Below, in pieces: positions 11,942-60,435 of a DNA stretch of 64,000 nucleotides. Numbering within the stretch: the first letter of the stretch is position 1; each line of letters opens with the position of its first letter. The notes beneath the pieces are model-generated. The model was not told the origin of the DNA. It saw only the letters and a program-made list of their open reading frames with translations, and ran no database searches. This stretch comes from Patescibacteria group bacterium (GTDB lineage Bacteria > Patescibacteriota > Minisyncoccia > Phycocordibacterales > CSBR16-119), in the NCBI GenBank assembly GCA_030917865.1, contig JAUPTX010000002.1:40-64039 (forward strand), given 5' to 3'. A program made the position numbers and the translations under genes.

Positions 11942-12424
11942 TTAAAAATCTTTTATTATAATCTCCGGTAAATCTTTTTTTGAAACTTGTATATACATTA
12001 CTGGTTCAATTTCTTCATAAGACACGGATTCATTGAAATTTATTTCTTTAAAATTTTCTTTTTCAAAAACATATACATAACCAAAAGCATCGTCTCCTAT
12101 TTGATCCATTGTTTCTTTTGTAGCACGAAATTCAAAACTTCCATTATTATTAGAAGAAAAACCGGTTCTCGATTCAAATGGTGCATTTTTTCCATTCATT
12201 ACCGCCATAAATATTGCCGTTTTAGCAAAAGGAGAAGTAAAAACCGCCGGCTCACCATCTGGGATTTTTTCATACTCGCCATTATCTTTTTTTATATGAT
12301 TAAAGGCTTGTCTTGGTTCAAATTTATTAATCTTAAAAGGCGAACCATGAAAAACATATCTTCCTGTTTTTTCAAGATTTTCTAAAATTTGTTTTGGTGT
12401 TTTTTCAAAATTTATATTTTCCAT
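11942..12424 (-). CDS. hypothetical protein (160 aa, soluble) between mreC and tgt
   Basis: Complete ORF tightly packed between mreC and tgt. No recognisable motif. Not MreD-like (not hydrophobic). Confidence 0.5.
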   Translation of the reverse strand: MENINFEKTPKQILENLEKTGRYVFHGSPFKINKFEPRQAFNHIKKDNGEYEKIPDGEPAVFTSPFAKTAIFMAVMNGKNAPFESRTGFSSNNNGSFEFRATKETMDQIGDDAFGYVYVFEKENFKEINFNESVSYEEIEPVMYIQVSKKDLPEIIIKDF

Positions 12425-48224: not shown

Positions 48225-48731
48225 ATGAAAAAACTGATCCTTCTCGCCATCTTTTTCCTGGGCATGATCGCCCAAGAAACATTCGGCCAAACCCGATACG
48301 GATGGGCAAACCCCATACCTGACAGTATGACGTGGAACTTGGACCAGTCGGTCAAAGAGGACTTTATCCTCTCCCCTCCAAGCGGCCAAGGTGACATACC
48401 CTTAGAATCGAGTATCTGGCAGAAACCAGAGAAAGACAAGATGACCGTAAAGATCGTGGCTGTAAGGCCCGCCGATCTCGGATTCGGACTTGGTTACGAC
48501 CACTCCGAATTCATCCTGGCCGCCAAAAAGCTCGGATACCTGCATTGCCCCGAATGGGTCCCAATCCAGGCGTACATGAGCTTTGGAAGGAGCAAGGGTC
48601 ACATCTTCTTCTACACAGGAGAAGCGAAGAAGTACTGGTGCTTTGGCCTATACGGCTACAAAAGCCAAGACCTTTGGAAAAGGACCCTGGACGGCAGACC
48701 TGATTCCATATGGATATTCGTACGAGAGTAA
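48225..48731 (+). CDS. hypothetical secreted protein (168 aa, N-terminal signal peptide), GC-rich cassette
   Basis: MKKLILLAIFFLGMIAQETFGQ signal peptide. The body is rich in aromatic residues and glycine. GC is roughly 50% by eye. A chance ORF of this length at that GC is improbable. Confidence 0.55.
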   Translation: MKKLILLAIFFLGMIAQETFGQTRYGWANPIPDSMTWNLDQSVKEDFILSPPSGQGDIPLESSIWQKPEKDKMTVKIVAVRPADLGFGLGYDHSEFILAAKKLGYLHCPEWVPIQAYMSFGRSKGHIFFYTGEAKKYWCFGLYGYKSQDLWKRTLDGRPDSIWIFVRE

Positions 48732-48744
48732 CAACTCTGGTACA

Positions 48745-48783
48745 AAAACCCCTGAAGCGAAAGCTTCAGGGGTTTCTTGTTTA
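48745..48783. terminator. bidirectional intrinsic terminator (AAAACCCCTGAAGC-GAAA-GCTTCAGGGGTTT + CTTGTTT)
   Basis: Perfect 13-bp stem between the convergent 168-aa ORF and pheT. Confidence 0.7.
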
Positions 48784-50595
48784 TCTTATTTCAAATCCTT
48801 TATCTTTTAATTTTGTGTAAATTTCTTCCATTATCGGAGCAACTTCTTCGTCTGTTAGAGTTTTTTCATGCGACTGAAATACAAGTCTGTAAGCATATGA
48901 AGTCTTGTAATCTTTTTGATACACATCGACAAGTCTCGGCTCTCTTGCTAAAAGATTCGCATCTTTTAAAACTTCTTCTATTTCTTTTTTATCAATCTCG
49001 TTTGGTATCAAAACAGCAATATCTCTTGTGATAAAAGGAAAAGAAGACCATTGTGTAAACTTTTTATTTTCTTTAATCTCATTTTCTGCAAATTTATAAG
49101 AAGAAAAATCTATGTTATTTTCTTTTACAAATTCGTCTAGTGACATTTCTGTCACACCTTTTTTATCCACCAAGGCAATATTTAAAACTTCGGAATCTTC
49201 TGTCGTAAAAACATTTCCGATTTCAAAAAGTTTTACATCATCAAGCCCCAAAACCCCAGCGTTTAATTTATTTATTTCATAAGACTCTTTTATTCCATCA
49301 GAAATATTTGTTCGGAGGTTTGATTTCCCTTTTGGACCACGAGCAACCTCGACCTTACCCTTTTTACCGAAAGTATATGTCATCGTCTCGCTATAGCCTT
49401 CATTTAACAGTTTCAAACGTACGGCAAAAATCTTTGCAAAAGTTTCGTTTATTTTTGGTTTTACAGAAATTTCTGGCATTACTGGCGCAACTTTTTCATA
49501 ACCAATAGTTCTACCAATTTCTTCTACTAAATCTTGCATCATATTTAGATCAAGTCTTTCTCCAGGAACAAAGATTTGGAAAATACCGTTTGTCTCACTG
49601 TAATCAAATCCAAGGGAAAGAACTGCTGTGGTTATCGTCGCGACGTCAAAGTCTACTCCCAAAACCCTGTTTATATCTTTCTGAGATACGACTATTTTTC
49701 TTTTTTCTTGCCACTTTTCTTTTGATTCATAAACGTCGACAATATCTTCAAAAGTTGCATCTGGAAACATTTCAAAAATCAAAGAAGAAAGTTCTGTCAT
49801 ACCGAGCGTCGCGTATTCTGGAGACAAATCATTTTCAAATCTTTTTGTAGAGTCTGTAAGTATGCCAAGTCTTCGTGCTGTCTTTCGCACAGATGAAGGC
49901 GCAAAGTTTGCAACTTCTATAACGATATCTTTTGTATTTTCATCAACTTCGGCTTTTGTTCCGCCTTTTACACCAGCAATAGCGAGAGCGCCTTCTTCAT
50001 CTGCAATAACTAAATCGGTTTCTAAAAGCTCTTTCTCTTCTCCGCCCAAGATTTGTATTTCTTCACCCATCTGAGCATTTCTAATATAGATTGTTTTATT
50101 GTCGGCAATTTTATCATAATCAAAAGCATGCGTTGGCTGACCAACGTTAAACATTACGATATTTGTCGCGTCGACAATATTGTTTATACTTCGCTGCCCA
50201 ATTGATTCTAAGTGCGTTACCATCCACTCTTTAGAAGGTCCGACTTTTACCCCGCGAATAATTCGCGCAGAGTATCTTCGGCAAGCACCTCCTTCTATGT
50301 TTATTTTTAATTCTGTTGGAGCGGATTCAGGAATTTTATATGAGAGTGTCGGATCAACAAAAGGAATATTTAAAAGCCCAGAAAGTTCTTTTGCCACACC
50401 TCTGTGTGAAAGCAAATCGTGCGCTCTGTTTGGCAAAATATTTATATCAAAAATAGTATCTTCTTTTCCATCTTTACCAATAAAAGTTTCTACACCTTCA
50501 ACTTCAGTTAAATGGTATGTGAAAACATCTGCCAATTTTTCAGCAGTCGGAATTTCTGGTATATACCACTTTAGCCAGTTGTAAGATATTTTCAT
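48781..50595 (-). CDS. pheT: phenylalanyl-tRNA synthetase beta subunit (short form, 604 aa)
   Basis: MKISYNWLKWYIP N-terminus, B3/B4 and B5 regions, and a C-terminal catalytic-like domain. Confidence 0.85.
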   Translation of the reverse strand: MKISYNWLKWYIPEIPTAEKLADVFTYHLTEVEGVETFIGKDGKEDTIFDINILPNRAHDLLSHRGVAKELSGLLNIPFVDPTLSYKIPESAPTELKINIEGGACRRYSARIIRGVKVGPSKEWMVTHLESIGQRSINNIVDATNIVMFNVGQPTHAFDYDKIADNKTIYIRNAQMGEEIQILGGEEKELLETDLVIADEEGALAIAGVKGGTKAEVDENTKDIVIEVANFAPSSVRKTARRLGILTDSTKRFENDLSPEYATLGMTELSSLIFEMFPDATFEDIVDVYESKEKWQEKRKIVVSQKDINRVLGVDFDVATITTAVLSLGFDYSETNGIFQIFVPGERLDLNMMQDLVEEIGRTIGYEKVAPVMPEISVKPKINETFAKIFAVRLKLLNEGYSETMTYTFGKKGKVEVARGPKGKSNLRTNISDGIKESYEINKLNAGVLGLDDVKLFEIGNVFTTEDSEVLNIALVDKKGVTEMSLDEFVKENNIDFSSYKFAENEIKENKKFTQWSSFPFITRDIAVLIPNEIDKKEIEEVLKDANLLAREPRLVDVYQKDYKTSYAYRLVFQSHEKTLTDEEVAPIMEEIYTKLKDKGFEIR

Positions 50596-51230
50596 GAGTT
50601 AATTTTATTATATTCTGCTTTATACTCCTCAATATAACGGGAAAACATTTCATTTTTTTGAGAATTAAGTACCTTTAATTTTTCTTCTCTTAACTGTGGA
50701 TCTAATTCTTTCTTATAAAGATCATCTACTTGTGATAAATATATTAGGTTTTGAAATTTAATTTTATTCCAAAGATTATTGTACTCTAACTCCACTAAAA
50801 TATCCTTTGTTTTAGATAAATCAACTACGGTAGAACCCTTATAAAAAATTTTATAAATTTTATTTTGAGTAGAACCAAGCATAGGTAAGCTTATAACCGA
50901 ATTATATGCAGCATGTCTAATCTTATGAACTACTAAAAAATTATTTTCTCTTGATAGATTCATGCAGTATTTGTCTGCATTAGATAAAACGTCATAATCG
51001 TATGTTTTCCCTTCAATATCTGAAAATATTTCTTTTTCTATTAATTTTTTATCTTTATCTAAAATGAAATCTTGTTCATCAAAATCACTTATTTTATCTG
51101 ACAACTCACAAATATACGCAATAAAAACATCGGTCACATTATTAACTATGTATACAGAACTCTCAAACCATTCTTGCTTTTGTCTAAGAAGTGTCCACCT
51201 TTTTTCTTCAAAAATAGATTTACTACTCAT
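50592..51230 (-). CDS. hypothetical AT-rich protein (212 aa) inserted between pheS and pheT
   Basis: Complete ORF starting 3 nt after the pheS stop; its stop overlaps the pheT start by 4 nt. Very AT-rich. No recognised motif. Confidence 0.55.
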   Translation of the reverse strand: MSSKSIFEEKRWTLLRQKQEWFESSVYIVNNVTDVFIAYICELSDKISDFDEQDFILDKDKKLIEKEIFSDIEGKTYDYDVLSNADKYCMNLSRENNFLVVHKIRHAAYNSVISLPMLGSTQNKIYKIFYKGSTVVDLSKTKDILVELEYNNLWNKIKFQNLIYLSQVDDLYKKELDPQLREEKLKVLNSQKNEMFSRYIEEYKAEYNKINS

Positions 51231-51233
51231 AAA

Positions 51234-51929
51234 CTAAAATTGATTTATCCTAATATCCCCCTGATAAAAATATCGCACATCTGGAATTTGCCATTTAACC
51301 ATCGCAACACGATCGAGTCCGCCACCAAAAGCAAATCCTTGAACCTTCTCTGGATCAAGTCCTGCATTTTTCAAAACATCAGGATGAATCATCCCGCCAC
51401 CCATCATCTCGAGCCATTTACCTTTGAACTTTGTGTGAATTTCAACAGAAGGTTCTGTGAATGGAAAAAAGCTCGGGCGGAATTCAACTAAAACATCTTC
51501 ACCTAAAACTTGTTTGTAAAATTCTAAAAGCACAGCTTTTAAATTAGCCAAACTTACTTTTGGTCCAACCATACATCCGTCTATCTGAAAAAATTGCATT
51601 TCGTGAGTCGCGTCTGTTGCTTCGTTTCGAAAAACTTTTCCAACAGAGATAAAAGCGCCTTCACTTTTACCTTCTTCTGCGAGCTTTTTCAAAGACCTGG
51701 CCGTGGAGTTTGTCGCATGAGTTCGCAAAACAAAACCAGGTTTTCCTTTGATATAAAAAGTGTCTTGCATGTCACGCGCCGGGTGATCTTTCGGCACATT
51801 TAAAGCGTCGAAATTGTGCCATTCATCTTCGAGTTCTGGAGCGGTCGAAACCTCAAATCCCATGCGAGAAAAAACACCAATAGATTCGGTCATTAATTTA
51901 ACGAGTGGATGTTCTTTACCTTTTTCCAT
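51234..51929 (-). CDS. pheS: phenylalanyl-tRNA synthetase alpha subunit (short form, 231 aa, catalytic core only)
   Basis: Class II motif 2 (FRNEATDATHEMQFFQIDG) and motif 3 (GFAFGGGLDRVAMV). Confidence 0.9.
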   Translation of the reverse strand: MEKGKEHPLVKLMTESIGVFSRMGFEVSTAPELEDEWHNFDALNVPKDHPARDMQDTFYIKGKPGFVLRTHATNSTARSLKKLAEEGKSEGAFISVGKVFRNEATDATHEMQFFQIDGCMVGPKVSLANLKAVLLEFYKQVLGEDVLVEFRPSFFPFTEPSVEIHTKFKGKWLEMMGGGMIHPDVLKNAGLDPEKVQGFAFGGGLDRVAMVKWQIPDVRYFYQGDIRINQF

Positions 51930-52067
51930 TCCTCAAATATAACAGATTTAACACTGTTTTAAAAGGCATATAAACTTTGACAAACCACATTTTTTTTATT
52001 GGATTTTAAAAACTATAACACTTTAACTTCTAGAATAAATATCGTTTAAAAAATATTTATTAAACAA

Positions 52068-55000
52068 CTATTTTACTTCTGAATCTGTTATCACATAGGG
52101 CTTACATTTTTGTAATCTTATTGTAGCACTACCCTCGTTATTGTTTTGATTTGCATCTGATTGATCGAGATAATGCAGGACGGCAATATTAGTCCTATTT
52201 CCACAAACCTTTGGTGAATTAGGAACTTTCATTGTTATAAATATATGCGTTTGCTGATTAGGAAAAAGTGTTGGAATGTAAAACATATGAACATTGTTGT
52301 TGTATGCGTTCGTGTTAGGTGTTTGATGAGAGTGATATATCAATCCTGGTGGAATTATTTCTTTAACTTGAACATTTGTAGCAGTATTATCTCCTAAATT
52401 TTTTACATCTATCCTCCAAGTTATATATCTATCAAATAAAGAGAGTGATGAATCAACCAACTCTTTTGCAACCCTTATATCTACTTTTCCATCAGTATTA
52501 ACTGGTGGAGTGTCTCCAACCAAAGCAACACCGAAATCTAAGTTTTCTACTGTTTCTCCGTCTTCTAGCGTGACTGTATACATATGGTTGTAATTTATAA
52601 ATGGATCAGTACTTATTCCCGGCTGTGTCACCGATTGATACAAATTTTCACCTATTAAACCGACGTAATACTCTCCGTCTGGAAGGTTTGTGAATTCGTA
52701 TCTACCGAGGTTTGGAATGTCTTCCGTAGTTGTGGTTTGGATTGGCATGTTGTTACCAGCTTGGAAAAGACCCACCGGAATACCTGCAAGGCGTAGCTCG
52801 GTCGATTGTTGAGAGCCGTTTTGGTTTTGGTCTTGATAAATATATCCATGAATAGAAGAAGTTCCTGCTTTTTTTAAACTTACACCATCAATATAAAACA
52901 TAGAGCTTACAAAAATATTACTCGTGTCAGAAATAAATTCGGGATCAAAAGCAATATAATTATACTCTATTCCATTATCTGGAATAGAAAAGTCTAAAAA
53001 GTATTCTTGCCATAAACCTATATTAGGATGTGAATATGAGTTAAGGTTTACAGGTACAGAAAATAACAAATCTGTCTGATTTGACACAAAAGATTCTTGA
53101 AAAGAAGGACTTGATAAAGGCTCTGCTGAAATATAAATTTTTTGATTGACATTAGATATCCCACCACCTCTTAGATATACACCGCGCCAAACCAATCGAT
53201 AACTACCAGGAAGAATGGGCTCTAAAGTCTTTGTTTGAATACTTTCAACATAAGTAGGCAAGCCAATATAATTACCAGGAACAAAAGAATTGGTCCCGCC
53301 AATATATCTGTTATTTGGAATACCATTATATGTTTCTTGAGGCCCAGAATTAGTCCAAGGAAAATCAAAATTTAAATCTCTAGTATATATATCAGTAGAT
53401 GGTCTAAAGTTACACCAACCAAGAAAATCACTTGGGCATAAAAAAGATAACTGACCTGCTCCATTTCCAGCACCCGGCAAATCTCCGATTTCAAAATTTC
53501 CATTACAAATATATTCATCGGGGTCATTAATACTTTCACAAGATGCTGCAGTCTTTATTAAAGCAGTAAATGAAAATCTGTTTGTATTTGAATTCTTGTT
53601 TGTATACCTAAAAACTCTAGTAGAAGTATCGATGGTTGGAATAATGTTTACAGACACAGAACCTGATGAATTTGATTGAATAGATCCAGTACAATTTGAT
53701 CCTGAGAAATACTGTATTACATCTCCAGGATCTGAAGCAACAACCTCAAAAATGTTAATCTTAAGCTGATTAACAGACCCCCCGGGATTAATATCATTAT
53801 CTAGTAAATTAACACACACTGGCTCTGTTCCATTAAACTGAATAAAATCATTCGTTGCTACCGGACTCGGCACTTCACACCCAGCCAATCCCTCCACCAT
53901 ATATCCCAAATGACACAAAACTTCTAGTTCATGTTCGTGGATATCTCTTTCTGTATTTGTTCCAATTGATGGATGCATTACATAAGTCTGTCCTGGGGCG
54001 CGATTCATGTCAAAGTGCGAAAGAGACGAGCCCTGTTGCCAGCTTGTTGGACTGTAAACAGGGCGAACGCCATCCGGAGCAGCGTTTAAAATATTTTTAA
54101 CACCACGGTAAACAACCTGGTTTGTTACAAACCAAGGAGAAGGGGCTCCGACTGGGACGTTTAATAGGTTTGTGACAGCGGTGATAAATCTGTTTTGAAG
54201 ACTTTCATCTTTGTGTGTGTAGTAGTCAAATGTTCCATGATTATAGGAAATATTGGTTTCATTTATAACCGAAGGCAAAAGACCTCTTAAACCAAGTGCA
54301 TGCATCATCTCATGCCACATAACGGTATAGAAGTCATAAGTATTCGCGTTAAGACTTGAATCAACGCTCCAGTTAATACCATTAAAATTTATTATTATGA
54401 AAGCGTCAAAAGACCCTTGTGCTGGGGTTGGGTTTTGTCTTGAGATGATATGTTTGTGAAGAGAGCCGTTGTCAGGGTTAGCAGAGTAATAGCCCAAATA
54501 TGAAGACGCCCCAGCTAGAGCTCCTGGTGGTAAGGGCTGGTCACTTCTTGTAAAAAGAATATCTGAGGTTACGGTAGTCGTATCTATCATTAGAATCTCT
54601 GACATATCTTCTAGAACCTGACAAGCTTCTTCTCTTCTACCATCTCCATATGTAGGGTCATCAAAACCAACGTTAGTGTTTAGTGCCACATCTTCAAAGT
54701 AGGCTTTGAAGTATCCCGTGACAGATGTATTTGCTCTACAGTTATATACTCCTGGATTACTTGTATCTTCATCGTATGCAACTACTTTTTTTGTTTTTAG
54801 GGAATCCAAGAAAGATTGTTTTCTTGGTTCTTCTTTTTTCATGAAAGCGTTTTCTTTTACCGGGTAACCCCAGGCGTCACGAATTGGTCCAAAGTCAACA
54901 TACTCTAATCCATATTCTTGTTTTAGGATAGCTCTTGCTTTTTCTTCGTCAAAAGGAAGTATCGGTAGGTCAAAGTTTGCCTCTTTTTTGTTTACTGGAA

Positions 55001-55217
55001 GCTTTGAGTATTGATATTGGAAATTAAATACTCCTGGAAATTCTTTTGAAGGAGAGATGTTATAGATGTTTTCACTTATTTGCCCAATCAAAGAAGCTTG
55101 GGCCGAATTTTCTATCTGAAGAATACTTGGAATAACAAGCCCTTGCATAGTAAAAAAAGTAAGAAACAAAATTCCCACAGAAATAATAAAATTTATTGAA
55201 GGTTTATATTTTTTCAT
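52068..55217 (-). CDS. large secreted/surface protein (1049 aa): signal peptide, HExxH zinc-metalloprotease-like region, SdrD-B/CnaB-type domain and C-terminal DUF11 repeat domain
   Basis: N-terminal hydrophobic signal. YTVMWHEMMHALGL (HExxH). A second HEHELE motif. GYIYQDQNQNGSQQSTE...GRYEFTNLPDGEYYV (SdrD B-like). VDIRVAKE...WRIDVKNLGDNTATNVQVKEIIPPGL (DUF11-like). Confidence 0.7.
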   Translation of the reverse strand: MKKYKPSINFIISVGILFLTFFTMQGLVIPSILQIENSAQASLIGQISENIYNISPSKEFPGVFNFQYQYSKLPVNKKEANFDLPILPFDEEKARAILKQEYGLEYVDFGPIRDAWGYPVKENAFMKKEEPRKQSFLDSLKTKKVVAYDEDTSNPGVYNCRANTSVTGYFKAYFEDVALNTNVGFDDPTYGDGRREEACQVLEDMSEILMIDTTTVTSDILFTRSDQPLPPGALAGASSYLGYYSANPDNGSLHKHIISRQNPTPAQGSFDAFIIINFNGINWSVDSSLNANTYDFYTVMWHEMMHALGLRGLLPSVINETNISYNHGTFDYYTHKDESLQNRFITAVTNLLNVPVGAPSPWFVTNQVVYRGVKNILNAAPDGVRPVYSPTSWQQGSSLSHFDMNRAPGQTYVMHPSIGTNTERDIHEHELEVLCHLGYMVEGLAGCEVPSPVATNDFIQFNGTEPVCVNLLDNDINPGGSVNQLKINIFEVVASDPGDVIQYFSGSNCTGSIQSNSSGSVSVNIIPTIDTSTRVFRYTNKNSNTNRFSFTALIKTAASCESINDPDEYICNGNFEIGDLPGAGNGAGQLSFLCPSDFLGWCNFRPSTDIYTRDLNFDFPWTNSGPQETYNGIPNNRYIGGTNSFVPGNYIGLPTYVESIQTKTLEPILPGSYRLVWRGVYLRGGGISNVNQKIYISAEPLSSPSFQESFVSNQTDLLFSVPVNLNSYSHPNIGLWQEYFLDFSIPDNGIEYNYIAFDPEFISDTSNIFVSSMFYIDGVSLKKAGTSSIHGYIYQDQNQNGSQQSTELRLAGIPVGLFQAGNNMPIQTTTTEDIPNLGRYEFTNLPDGEYYVGLIGENLYQSVTQPGISTDPFINYNHMYTVTLEDGETVENLDFGVALVGDTPPVNTDGKVDIRVAKELVDSSLSLFDRYITWRIDVKNLGDNTATNVQVKEIIPPGLIYHSHQTPNTNAYNNNVHMFYIPTLFPNQQTHIFITMKVPNSPKVCGNRTNIAVLHYLDQSDANQNNNEGSATIRLQKCKPYVITDSEVK

Positions 55218-60300: not shown

Positions 60301-60435
60301 AGACAGGATTTGAGTCTTCCCTGTTCCTGGACCAGCAACAACCATAACTGGGCCTTCTATGGTGTCCACAGCTTCTTTTTGAGCCTTATTTAGCCTTTCA
60401 TAGCTTTCCAAAAACGCTTTTTCATCTTTTTTCAT
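57385..60435 (-). CDS. UvrD/PcrA-family superfamily-1 helicase fused to a C-terminal RecB-like PD-(D/E)xK nuclease domain (AddA-like)
   Basis: Walker A AGPGTGKTQILSLRIANIL and SF1 helicase motifs. C-terminal nuclease motifs (VVDYKTGK and YRQIVFYKLL, the QhxxY motif). No AddB-like partner is adjacent. Confidence 0.8.
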   Translation of the reverse strand: MKKDEKAFLESYERLNKAQKEAVDTIEGPVMVVAGPGTGKTQILSLRIANILRQTDTAPENILALTFTESGVSNMRKRLTDFIGSAAYSVVIKTFHGFANDVIRDNPENFPRIIGAKNITESIQISLIEEIIIETKLSLLKPFGDTLYYTKAINSAISDLKREGVLPEDFDNIVFLAQRDFEEISDLYHEKGRYKGKIKNEYQDLKKRIEKNRELALVYRKYEEKLVEKKYYDYNDMIMEVLKMLKEDSDLLLRLQENHQYILVDEHQDTNNAQNKILELLANFHESPNLFVVGDKKQSIFKFQGASLENFFYFKHLYPEAKLITLTENYRSTQTILDSAHSLLAGREKLSANIKEKEKKIHFYTFPDDASEYYFVASSIQEKIKEGNGASSCAVLYRNNGDAFPVADMLARFGIPYVIESDQDILRDSYIRKFIKIIKAVNNFGDDDVLAEMLHLDLFKISPIDLIRVVRSAKDKKKFDLYDIISNKEKMLDKMPLENKESFLETYANLSGWVSSSKNEELVECLEKILRQSGLLTTALSENPEKVEVINTFFEEARDLEKTNPSARLSDFCEYLDIIEKHGLSIKRKAKPLGDAVRLMTAHKSKGLEFENVYIVGAYDGHWGNKSKREILKLLPSVYSLIKDKKENDFDYFDESSSGENDNEERRLFYVALTRAKKEIHISYGSFSSDGRERVPSQFVGEIDTDFIEIVSPDNFVQNFSKEKEILFKEKIVKPTKEDYKEKYKDFVREKFLSQGLSVTALNNYLKSPWRYFYRNLVRLPEPQNRSQIYGTVIHAVLQAFFESLKYEEPGKEFLFQKFEERLSGETLRDSEREDLLDKGYKTLDAWYEENKGKLHKHALVELPINGVYINSEIRLTGKLDKLEFIDGSERHVRVVDYKTGKPKSEKFVRGETKDSDGAYYRQIVFYKLLLSLYADGKFVMDEGSLEFVEPDEKGKFTKHTFAPTDEEVENLKSEIIRVSDEILNLKFWDTPCDPKDMGEGNEKYCELVEEIKNRI

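Follow-up and report, generated by a model that had tools for sequence, protein, structure and literature searches.

An accessory open reading frame between pheS and pheT of a Patescibacteria genome, and a recurrent insertion slot at the same junction in related genomes

Why should a gene that matches no known domain stand between the two subunit genes of phenylalanyl-tRNA synthetase (PheRS)? The question was raised by a stretch of 64,000 nucleotides (nt) from a Patescibacteria group bacterium (GenBank assembly GCA_030917865.1, contig JAUPTX010000002.1, positions 40 to 64,039), hereafter called the window, in which an initial annotation had noted an AT-rich open reading frame (ORF), here termed orfX, within the pheS-pheT operon. 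The ORF listing and direct reading agreed with that annotation on the coordinates, the 3-nt spacer after pheS and the ATGA overlap with pheT (Table 1); it had left unstated that all three genes lie on the minus strand, on which the upstream junction reads TAG-TTT-ATG. Our answer, to which we assign a probability of about 0.8, is that orfX is a genuine gene, accessory and dispensable, standing in a slot of recurrent gain and loss, riding on read-through of the pheS-pheT operon and on stop-start coupling. A chimeric join inside the operon, i.e., an artefact of assembly or binning, would fit with the source being a metagenome-assembled genome and with the deviant composition of the insert. However, orfX-bearing DNA with the same gene order was also found in a JGI contig at 99.94% identity (2 mismatches in 3,284 nt) and in a Logan contig at 100% identity, and this presence in two other assemblies makes a one-off misassembly unlikely. 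Moreover, the borders are codon-exact, both flanking genes are intact, and analogous inserts occur in dozens of independent assemblies, so that an artefact can be set aside with near certainty.

To place the junction in context, related loci were collected in two scans: a PheT scan, in which each GTDB species was represented by a single genome, yielded 80 loci (L001-L080), all of them from Nomurabacteria, Paceibacterota or Patescibacteria metagenome-assembled genomes, and an independent scan of metagenome contigs gave L084-L163. Their pheS-pheT junctions were either empty or filled by other genes, never by orfX. The PheT of the window was 71-75% identical to those of L001/L086, L002, L084 and L085 (73% to L085), its identity to the remaining ones tested being 50-57%. 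In L085 the site is empty, reading ...AATCAGTTT TAG TTT ATGAAAATATCTTAC, and the junction continues after TAG TTT as ATGAAAATATCT; compared with it, the window has exactly 636 extra nt, with ATGA on both sides, which bears out the earlier statement that an unrelated gene has been inserted in this operon. At the same site L084, whose PheT is 96% identical to that of L085, carries a 97-aa membrane ORF with an 8-nt direct repeat (TTTATGAA) at the borders of the insert, a single copy of which occurs in the empty site of L085, and both L001 and L002 carry a nucleoside-deoxyribosyltransferase-like gene. A single ATG, located 3 nt past the pheS TAG where pheT starts when the site is empty, serves as the start of the three unrelated genes found in the window, in L084 and in L002; in L001, the spacer is 2 nt after TAA. 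PheT starts with the canonical MKISYNWLKWYI in all relatives, with the insert present or absent, and PheS ends with ...NQF in the window and the empty-site relatives alike. Since the C-termini of PheS and the N-termini of PheT are unchanged, no gene has been split, and a recent gain or loss at this site is indicated.

The borders of orfX had no direct repeats, target-site duplications or tRNA genes, only ATGA being common to both start codons, and the nearest tRNA gene was more than 11 kb away. No remnants of the relatives' cassettes were found in the window, nor any remnants of orfX at the junctions of the relatives. A 24-nt inverted repeat (79% complementary) bracketing orfX was considered as an insertion-site repeat and as a coupling hairpin, and was rejected in both roles: its arms lie in conserved coding sequence of pheS and pheT and are also present in relatives without an insert, the hairpin is weakly formed in the window's clade (z = -1.7 in L085), and the uninterrupted junctions (n = 83) are on average less structured than their shuffles (mean z = +0.6).

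The same junction is filled in many Paceibacteria/Nomurabacteria relatives. Among the 76 loci of the genome set having both pheS and pheT, the gap was 5-79 nt in 58 (5-21 nt in 55 of these) and 135-1,675 nt in the other 18; in the metagenome set, 13 of the 78 loci counted had at least 130 nt between the two genes. Taken together, 31 of 154 loci (about 20%) were occupied, with inserts of 130-1,700 nt, and the gap of the unoccupied loci was 5-126 nt, below 30 nt in all but ten. The insertion had initially been called unusual, a wording that needs qualifying when about 20% of the genomes of this lineage carry something at the junction. In a neighbour-joining tree of PheT, most occupied junctions fell in one sub-clade, about two-thirds of whose members were occupied, and sister genomes with 82-83% identical PheT (L010/L042 and L020/L049) had different inserts. 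Literature searches for such an arrangement in Patescibacteria returned nothing relevant, and as far as they show, the recurrent, codon-exact slot pattern has not been described before.

About 23 unrelated families were recognised as occupants of the slot, among them 1) nucleoside-2-deoxyribosyltransferase-like genes (Nuc_deoxyrib_tr, sub-threshold in Pfam; L001, L002 and L086), 2) SET-domain genes (L045, L063, L068, L073, L088, L102, L103 and L129), 3) cytidylyltransferase-like genes (CTP_transf_like; L003 and L042), 4) a C39-like peptidase gene (Peptidase_C39_2; L003), 5) genes for the 23S-rRNA-intervening-sequence protein (23S_rRNA_IVP, PF05635; L064:3582-4000, L068:3579-4000 and L103:2072-2416), 6) an EamA transporter gene (L061), 7) a gene for an AAA_33 or zeta-like kinase (L096), 8) genes for small membrane proteins (L036, L043, L049, L084 and L138), and 9) ORFans, at many loci. 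The pheST strand carries the longest ORFs of all inserts and each ORF that has a Pfam match, and the G+C content (GC) of the inserts, 0.24-0.36, is below that of the flanking pheS and pheT in every case. The first inserted ORF begins 1-7 nt past the pheS stop in 15 of the 18 occupied genome loci, and at the other end 10 of the 18 have a last ORF that overlaps pheT or stops 1-9 nt short of it; for comparison, roughly a third of the same-strand neighbours in the window are equally close, as counted from the ORF list. Cassettes shared between species (SET, cytidylyltransferase, intervening-sequence protein and small membrane protein) are 72-82% identical, as against 60-68% for PheT. Being conserved at or above the level of a core gene, they are functional genes that persist or are exchanged.

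Three further observations were made on the contents of the slot. The PF05635 genes between pheS and pheT are far from any rRNA gene, and those of L064 and L068 have imperfect inverted repeats on either side (…agtaggtagtag… / …ctactaactattatctact…), which recall the stems flanking rRNA intervening sequences. Seven SET cassettes (L045, L068, L073, L088, L102, L103 and L129) have a second open frame of 51-124 codons on the same strand, which overlaps the SET gene and gives BLAST matches between loci; it is probably a by-product of SET conservation and not itself a gene. In addition, a non-coding element of about 125 nt stands directly before the pheT ATG in L003 (3869-4000), L008 (3870-4000) and L092 (2879-3000). 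It opens with a mini-ORF (MNPVR...) at the would-be pheT start, has ATGAA on both sides, and carries 12-bp terminal inverted repeats, CCCGTTAGAGGT...ACCTCTAACGGG in L003 and CCCGTACGAAAT...ATTTCGTACGGG in L092, which differ by compensatory changes; it could be a mobile element resembling miniature inverted-repeat transposable elements or a structured RNA.

That orfX is a genuine gene follows from its length. When its own 639 nt were shuffled 5,000 times, the longest run without a stop, taken over all frames, had a mean of 59 codons and a maximum of 161, so the 212 codons observed, never reached by the shuffles, cannot be due to chance, and TGA is a true stop here, because the longest ORFs of the window, of 1,000-1,200 codons, read through under translation table 11. 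GC along orfX was 0.24-0.27, compared with about 0.38 in the flanks, and was the lowest among the 53 ORFs of the window, in agreement with the AT-richness first reported. At codon positions 1, 2 and 3 GC was 0.36, 0.22 and 0.19, which among the 45 ORFs of the window with 100 aa or more is second lowest, lowest, and tied for second to third lowest, respectively. The description of the product as extremely rich in lysine and asparagine was somewhat overstated, K and N making up 11.8% and 7.5% of the residues and L, S, E and I being similarly common; the product is hydrophilic with a pI of 5.4. Low GC combined with tight packing was ruled out as a sole mark of recent insertion by a control, the 160-aa ORF that abuts mreC and tgt with spacers of 2 and 0 nt, respectively, and has GC of 0.29 and 0.15 at third positions. 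This control belongs to a large family of uncharacterised Patescibacteria proteins (more than 120 homologues), and in the two family loci compared (L164, L165), its proS-mreB-mreC-X-tgt context is kept in a relative at 76% identity, with an elsewhere-located copy in a relative at 52%. The number of its homologues also indicates that our homology searches were not blind to low-GC hypothetical proteins of Patescibacteria.

Comparison of orfX with Pfam, NCBIfam, PADLOC and PHROGs gave no domain match, as the initial annotation had stated on finding no motif; PADLOC and PHROGs remained empty even at E <= 10, and hmmscan against Pfam at E <= 1 returned only a chance-level STAT_int match (E 0.41). 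A word-indexed search of 5.8 billion protein clusters retrieved only orfX itself, labelled as a hypothetical protein of a Patescibacteria metagenome-assembled genome, and a full phmmer scan of 1.84 billion representatives revealed one relative, P0002 (38% identity, E 1.9e-22), so that one homologue of orfX is known among about 15 billion proteins. P0002 is encoded on a 1.6-kb contig without pheS or pheT, next to an 82-aa ORF and a convergent ORF pair (L081:875-1519, minus strand), the 86-aa member of which has a weak HicA_toxin match (PF07927, E 0.017) below the Pfam threshold. A profile built from the two sequences found nothing further in the protein database, no relatives in IMG/VR viral contigs or JGI metagenome contigs, and only chance matches to the proteasome (E 0.7) among PDB sequences; tblastn with the single orfX sequence detected no relatives in GenBank phages or PLSDB plasmids. 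The 38% identity across different contexts indicates that the product is conserved at the protein level and shows the family to be real and selected, though extremely rare. AlphaFold2 models of orfX had a mean predicted local distance difference test (pLDDT) score of 48 when no alignment was supplied and of 52 with the two sequences aligned, a two-helix hairpin at the C-terminus being the only part of usable confidence, and Foldseek found no PDB match below E 0.3, generic helical hairpins coming out on top. The product is predicted to be a soluble, acidic protein of 25 kDa, in which a small centre of mixed alpha/beta structure is combined with a helical hairpin at the C-terminus.

These data bear on the idea that orfX is a component of PheRS, namely the detached B1/B2 tRNA-binding part of PheT, the N-terminal arm of PheS, or a new accessory subunit kept there for stoichiometric co-expression. 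Such a role would suit its position between both subunit genes with coupling-type junctions, the lack of the N-terminal arm in PheS and of B2 in PheT, and the two-helix hairpin as the only confidently modelled part, which we take to be superficially like the PheS arm. However, helical hairpins are generic and the Foldseek matches non-significant, the minimal PheS and PheT are common to all relatives, including those with empty or differently filled junctions, and the N-terminus of PheT is intact. Furthermore, orfX showed no similarity to tRNA_bind (PF01588) or the PheS N-terminal domain (PF02912) even at E <= 1, tblastn (E <= 1e-3) found no relatives of it in the 160 related loci fetched by PheT similarity, and its sole homologue is not beside pheS or pheT. 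Both forms in which the initial annotation had raised the idea, a lineage-specific accessory factor of PheRS and a detached N-terminal part of PheT, thus run counter to the comparative data, by which a PheRS component appears to be largely refuted already; we consider it very improbable. Judged from sequence, orfX has nothing specific to do with PheRS and should not be annotated as PheRS-related, and its role is most likely that of a niche-specific accessory, not one in aminoacylation. As an observation on the lineage itself, a minimal PheRS was found across L001-L163, with a PheS of about 231 aa missing the N-terminal helical arm and a PheT of about 600 aa with an intact N-terminus, no B2/tRNA_bind domain, and a TIGR00472 match from profile position 157.

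The same searches were informative on whether orfX is a selfish or defence gene (toxin, abortive-infection factor or addiction module) lodged where its silencing or deletion would harm pheT, a role also suggested initially. Rarity, low GC and a mobile appearance are what would be expected of such a gene; the ATGA overlap makes imprecise deletion costly, P0002 lies near the HicA-like ORF, and L096 has a zeta-toxin-like kinase in the slot. Against it, PADLOC and PHROGs gave no match, phage, plasmid and viral collections held no relatives, orfX is a single gene with no partner or antidote gene, and the slot is otherwise filled mostly by genes for ordinary enzymes, for transporters and for small membrane proteins. 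Clean loss also evidently happens, as seen from the empty L085 beside the occupied L084. A selfish or defence function therefore seems unlikely.

How orfX might be expressed was examined from signals in the window. A promoter-like site upstream of pheS (Table 1) has its second hexamer ending 6 nt before the pheS ATG, a leaderless-type geometry. A TAnnnT box, often TGnTAnAAT, was present 5-8 nt before the start in 13 of the 27 operon-first genes of the window (upstream gap of at least 45 nt), including pheS and the genes starting at 60435, 10306 and 4725, compared with about 1-2 per position at other spacings. This suggests that operon-first genes are expressed as leaderless mRNAs, possibly a common mode in this organism. 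Around orfX, promoter-like matches were at the chance level (14 versus 12.4 expected from shuffles), no terminator-like hairpin was found inside it, and direct reading revealed no Shine-Dalgarno-like sequence near the start of orfX or pheT. A search of the whole window with Rfam returned three tRNAs only, with no T-box or other leader at pheS. In several of the loci with a longer 3′ spacer (19-41 nt), a TGnTA(A/G)ACT-type box ends 6-7 nt before the pheT ATG (L042, L061, L045 and the distal part of L003). The operon read-through first put forward is plausible on these grounds, with all genes on one strand, essentially no spacer, no terminator and no promoter-like matches above shuffles.

The tight junctions could also mean that the frame of orfX is kept as a translational bridge, in which a nonsense or frameshift mutation would lower translation of pheT even if the protein were useless. 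The stop-start junctions on both sides of orfX, the missing Shine-Dalgarno-like sequences, and the leaderless look of operon-first genes, by which internal genes may depend on reinitiation, agree with this, as do the low GC at second codon positions and the high FYINK content, both expected under weak constraint on the protein. On the other hand, the homologue elsewhere has kept 38% identity and long invariant motifs, indicating selection on the protein at least there, several other occupants have clearly functional domains that are 72-82% conserved between species, and a TATAAT located 11 nt ahead of pheT could free that gene from any dependence on orfX. We regard a mere bridge as rather unlikely.

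The reading that we prefer, an accessory gene in a gain-and-loss slot, would involve the following steps. One ORF's worth of DNA (636 nt) would have been inserted into the 3-nt pheS-pheT spacer of a Paceibacteria/Nomurabacteria-type genome, such that the ATG of orfX took the place of the pheT start 3 nt past the pheS TAG and the end of orfX restored a stop-start junction (ATGA). Having no regulatory signals of its own, orfX would depend on the pheS promoter for its transcription and form the central gene of an operon of three, whose transcript most likely ends at the hairpin downstream of pheT (Table 1); ribosomes terminating on pheS would reinitiate on orfX, and pheT would be reinitiated after orfX. 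Its origin may lie in an illegitimate insertion or replacement at the level of microhomology, after which deletions would have trimmed the borders until the ORFs came to abut. Only co-oriented, terminator-free inserts would survive, because others would cut off the essential pheT, and this would explain the uniform orientation of the inserts. Co-transcription, termination-reinitiation, dispensability and the trimming scenario are what we infer from the arrangement. Several points weigh against this reading. The loci counted are not independent of one another in phylogeny, and the metagenome set includes some duplicates of genome loci (e.g., L086 is L001). ORF-precise borders are not obviously expected from random illegitimate recombination, trimming being an assumption, and the evidence for co-transcription and coupling is of one kind, geometry. 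The TATAAT before pheT is perfect and lies inside the 3′ end of orfX, where it could serve as an independent start for pheT and make coupling unnecessary. The low GC of orfX, mostly at codon positions 1 and 2, may mean weak amino-acid constraint and not foreign origin, and the models of its product are too poor for a fold-based function to be assigned.

The variability of neighbouring junctions was useful in judging how special the slot is. The conserved backbone order was helicase-(trhO-like)-pheS-pheT-gyrB, and inserts of at least 300 nt were found in 16 of 76 loci between pheS and pheT, 24 of 50 between pheT and gyrB, 7 of 16 between the trhO-like gene and pheS, and 14 of 24 between the helicase gene and pheS. 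They are thus at least as common at the neighbouring junctions as at pheS-pheT. Intercalation of accessory genes at core-gene junctions is therefore a general habit of these genomes; particular to the pheS/pheT slot are its position inside an operon and its strict architecture. In the window itself, the convergent 168-aa ORF stands at the pheT-gyrB site, which is below 130 nt in about half of the relatives, and a 1,049-aa protein gene of surface or adhesin type stands between the trhO-like (UPF0176/rhodanese) gene and pheS, a junction of 50-90 nt in half of the relatives having the trhO-like gene (Table 1).

These counts also apply to the possibility that the pheS-pheT stop-start junction (TAG-TTT-ATGAA in the window's clade) is a dedicated, ORF-precise capture site served by an unrecognised site-specific mechanism. 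Hints of this are the start of three unrelated genes (window, L084 and L002) at one ATG, the TTTATGAA repeat around the L084 insert, and the ~125-nt element at the same ATG in L003, L008 and L092. However, a spacer of 3 nt leaves a viable insertion no other place to fall, ATGA/ATGAA repeats are expected from two AT-rich gene starts, and the neighbouring junctions are as variable or more so. A capture site of this kind, acting for promoterless ORFs as a single-slot analogue of an integron that lacks integrase and attC, is accordingly improbable in our view; if true, bacteria with tiny genomes would be sampling accessory genes at housekeeping expression levels.

Table 1. Positions of orfX, the pheS-pheT operon and other features in the window
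Feature	Position (nt)	Strand	Details
pheS	51234..51929	-	231 aa, catalytic core without N-terminal arm; PF01409 (E 1.4e-81); TIGR00468 profile positions 67-318 of 324
Spacer TTT	51231..51233	-	3 nt, pheS TAG to orfX ATG; same as the pheS-pheT spacer of L085 (alignment)
orfX, inserted accessory ORF	50592..51230	-	212 aa, GC 0.26; one of two known family members
orfX part common to P0002 (L081:361-894)	50661..51152	-	Residues 27-190, assuming a TTG start on the contig of P0002; invariant KIRHAAY and KIYKIF.KG..VDLS.T.D...EL.YN.LW
Predicted C-terminal helical hairpin of orfX	50598..50807	-	Residues 142-211; means of 10-residue blocks from 59 (141-150) up to 91 (181-190)
ATGA overlap	50592..50595	-	orfX TGA stop and pheT ATG start; direct reading and alignment
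pheT	48781..50595	-	604 aa; B3_4, B5, core-like and FDX-ACB domains; TIGR00472 match; N-terminus intact, no B2/tRNA_bind domain
Promoter-like site upstream of pheS	51936..51963	-	TTTAAA, 16 nt, TATATT, with TG; consensus scan only
G+C-rich hairpin between pheT end and convergent ORF	48746..48775		Perfect, 13 bp; likely bidirectional terminator closing the operon
Convergent ORF	48225..48731	+	168 aa, hydrophobic N-terminus; GC 0.51, highest in the window; no Pfam match
Gene of surface or adhesin type	52068..55217	-	1,049 aa, SdrD_B and DUF11
Control ORF between mreC and tgt	11942..12424	-	160 aa

By itself, orfX adds one to the uncharacterised accessory genes of an uncultured lineage of Patescibacteria. 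Of wider interest is that foreign ORFs have repeatedly been tolerated inside the operon of an essential two-subunit enzyme, in about a fifth of the related genomes, and that the surviving inserts keep a strict architecture, on the same strand, with no terminator and usually with a start in the old coupling position. The slot is a natural data set on what viable insertions inside an operon must look like, and it bears on gene expression where leaderless first genes and stop-start reinitiation seem to replace Shine-Dalgarno sites. For annotators it carries a caution against inferring 'guilt by operon' in these genomes.

Several known systems resemble the slot in part. The cassettes of integrons are, like the slot ORFs, promoterless, co-oriented, diverse, often of unknown function, and arranged singly or in short arrays behind an upstream promoter. 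However, the stop of orfX overlaps the pheT start and leaves no room for attC, no repeat or inverted repeat was shared at the cassette borders across loci, and no integrase was found among the few neighbouring genes scanned with Pfam, the only search made for one. Free-standing homing-endonuclease genes, such as the seg and mob genes of T4, stand between conserved phage genes and are likewise single, precisely intercalated, low-GC ORFs of patchy occurrence among relatives, but orfX has no HNH, GIY-YIG, LAGLIDADG or other Pfam domain, and the other slot occupants are not nucleases.

For trpB and trpA, the occurrence of unrelated genes between the two has been discussed in terms of possible 'morons' (PMC2395257). 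The likeness of orfX to these is that it stands between genes that are adjacent in relatives, differs from them in composition and has no apparent functional link to its flanks.

Classical phage morons carry their own promoter and terminator. In contrast, orfX has no terminator, its 3-nt 5′ spacer leaves no room for a promoter, and its host is a cellular chromosome instead of a phage. A further counterpart is the hot spot of horizontal gene transfer, or 'islet', an interval between two core genes that holds different accessory genes in each genome. The pheS/pheT slot differs from it in lying inside the operon for two subunits of one essential enzyme, in measuring only 1-20 nt when empty, and in having occupants that are single ORFs or short strings without signals of their own, co-oriented and mostly butt-joined to the flanking stop and start codons. 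It shares with the hot spots an interval flanked by core genes, contents that vary between close relatives over some 23 unrelated families with GC below that of the core, and a turnover faster than core divergence, as in L084 and L085. With both defining features present, the slot fits the concept of a hot spot of horizontal gene transfer.

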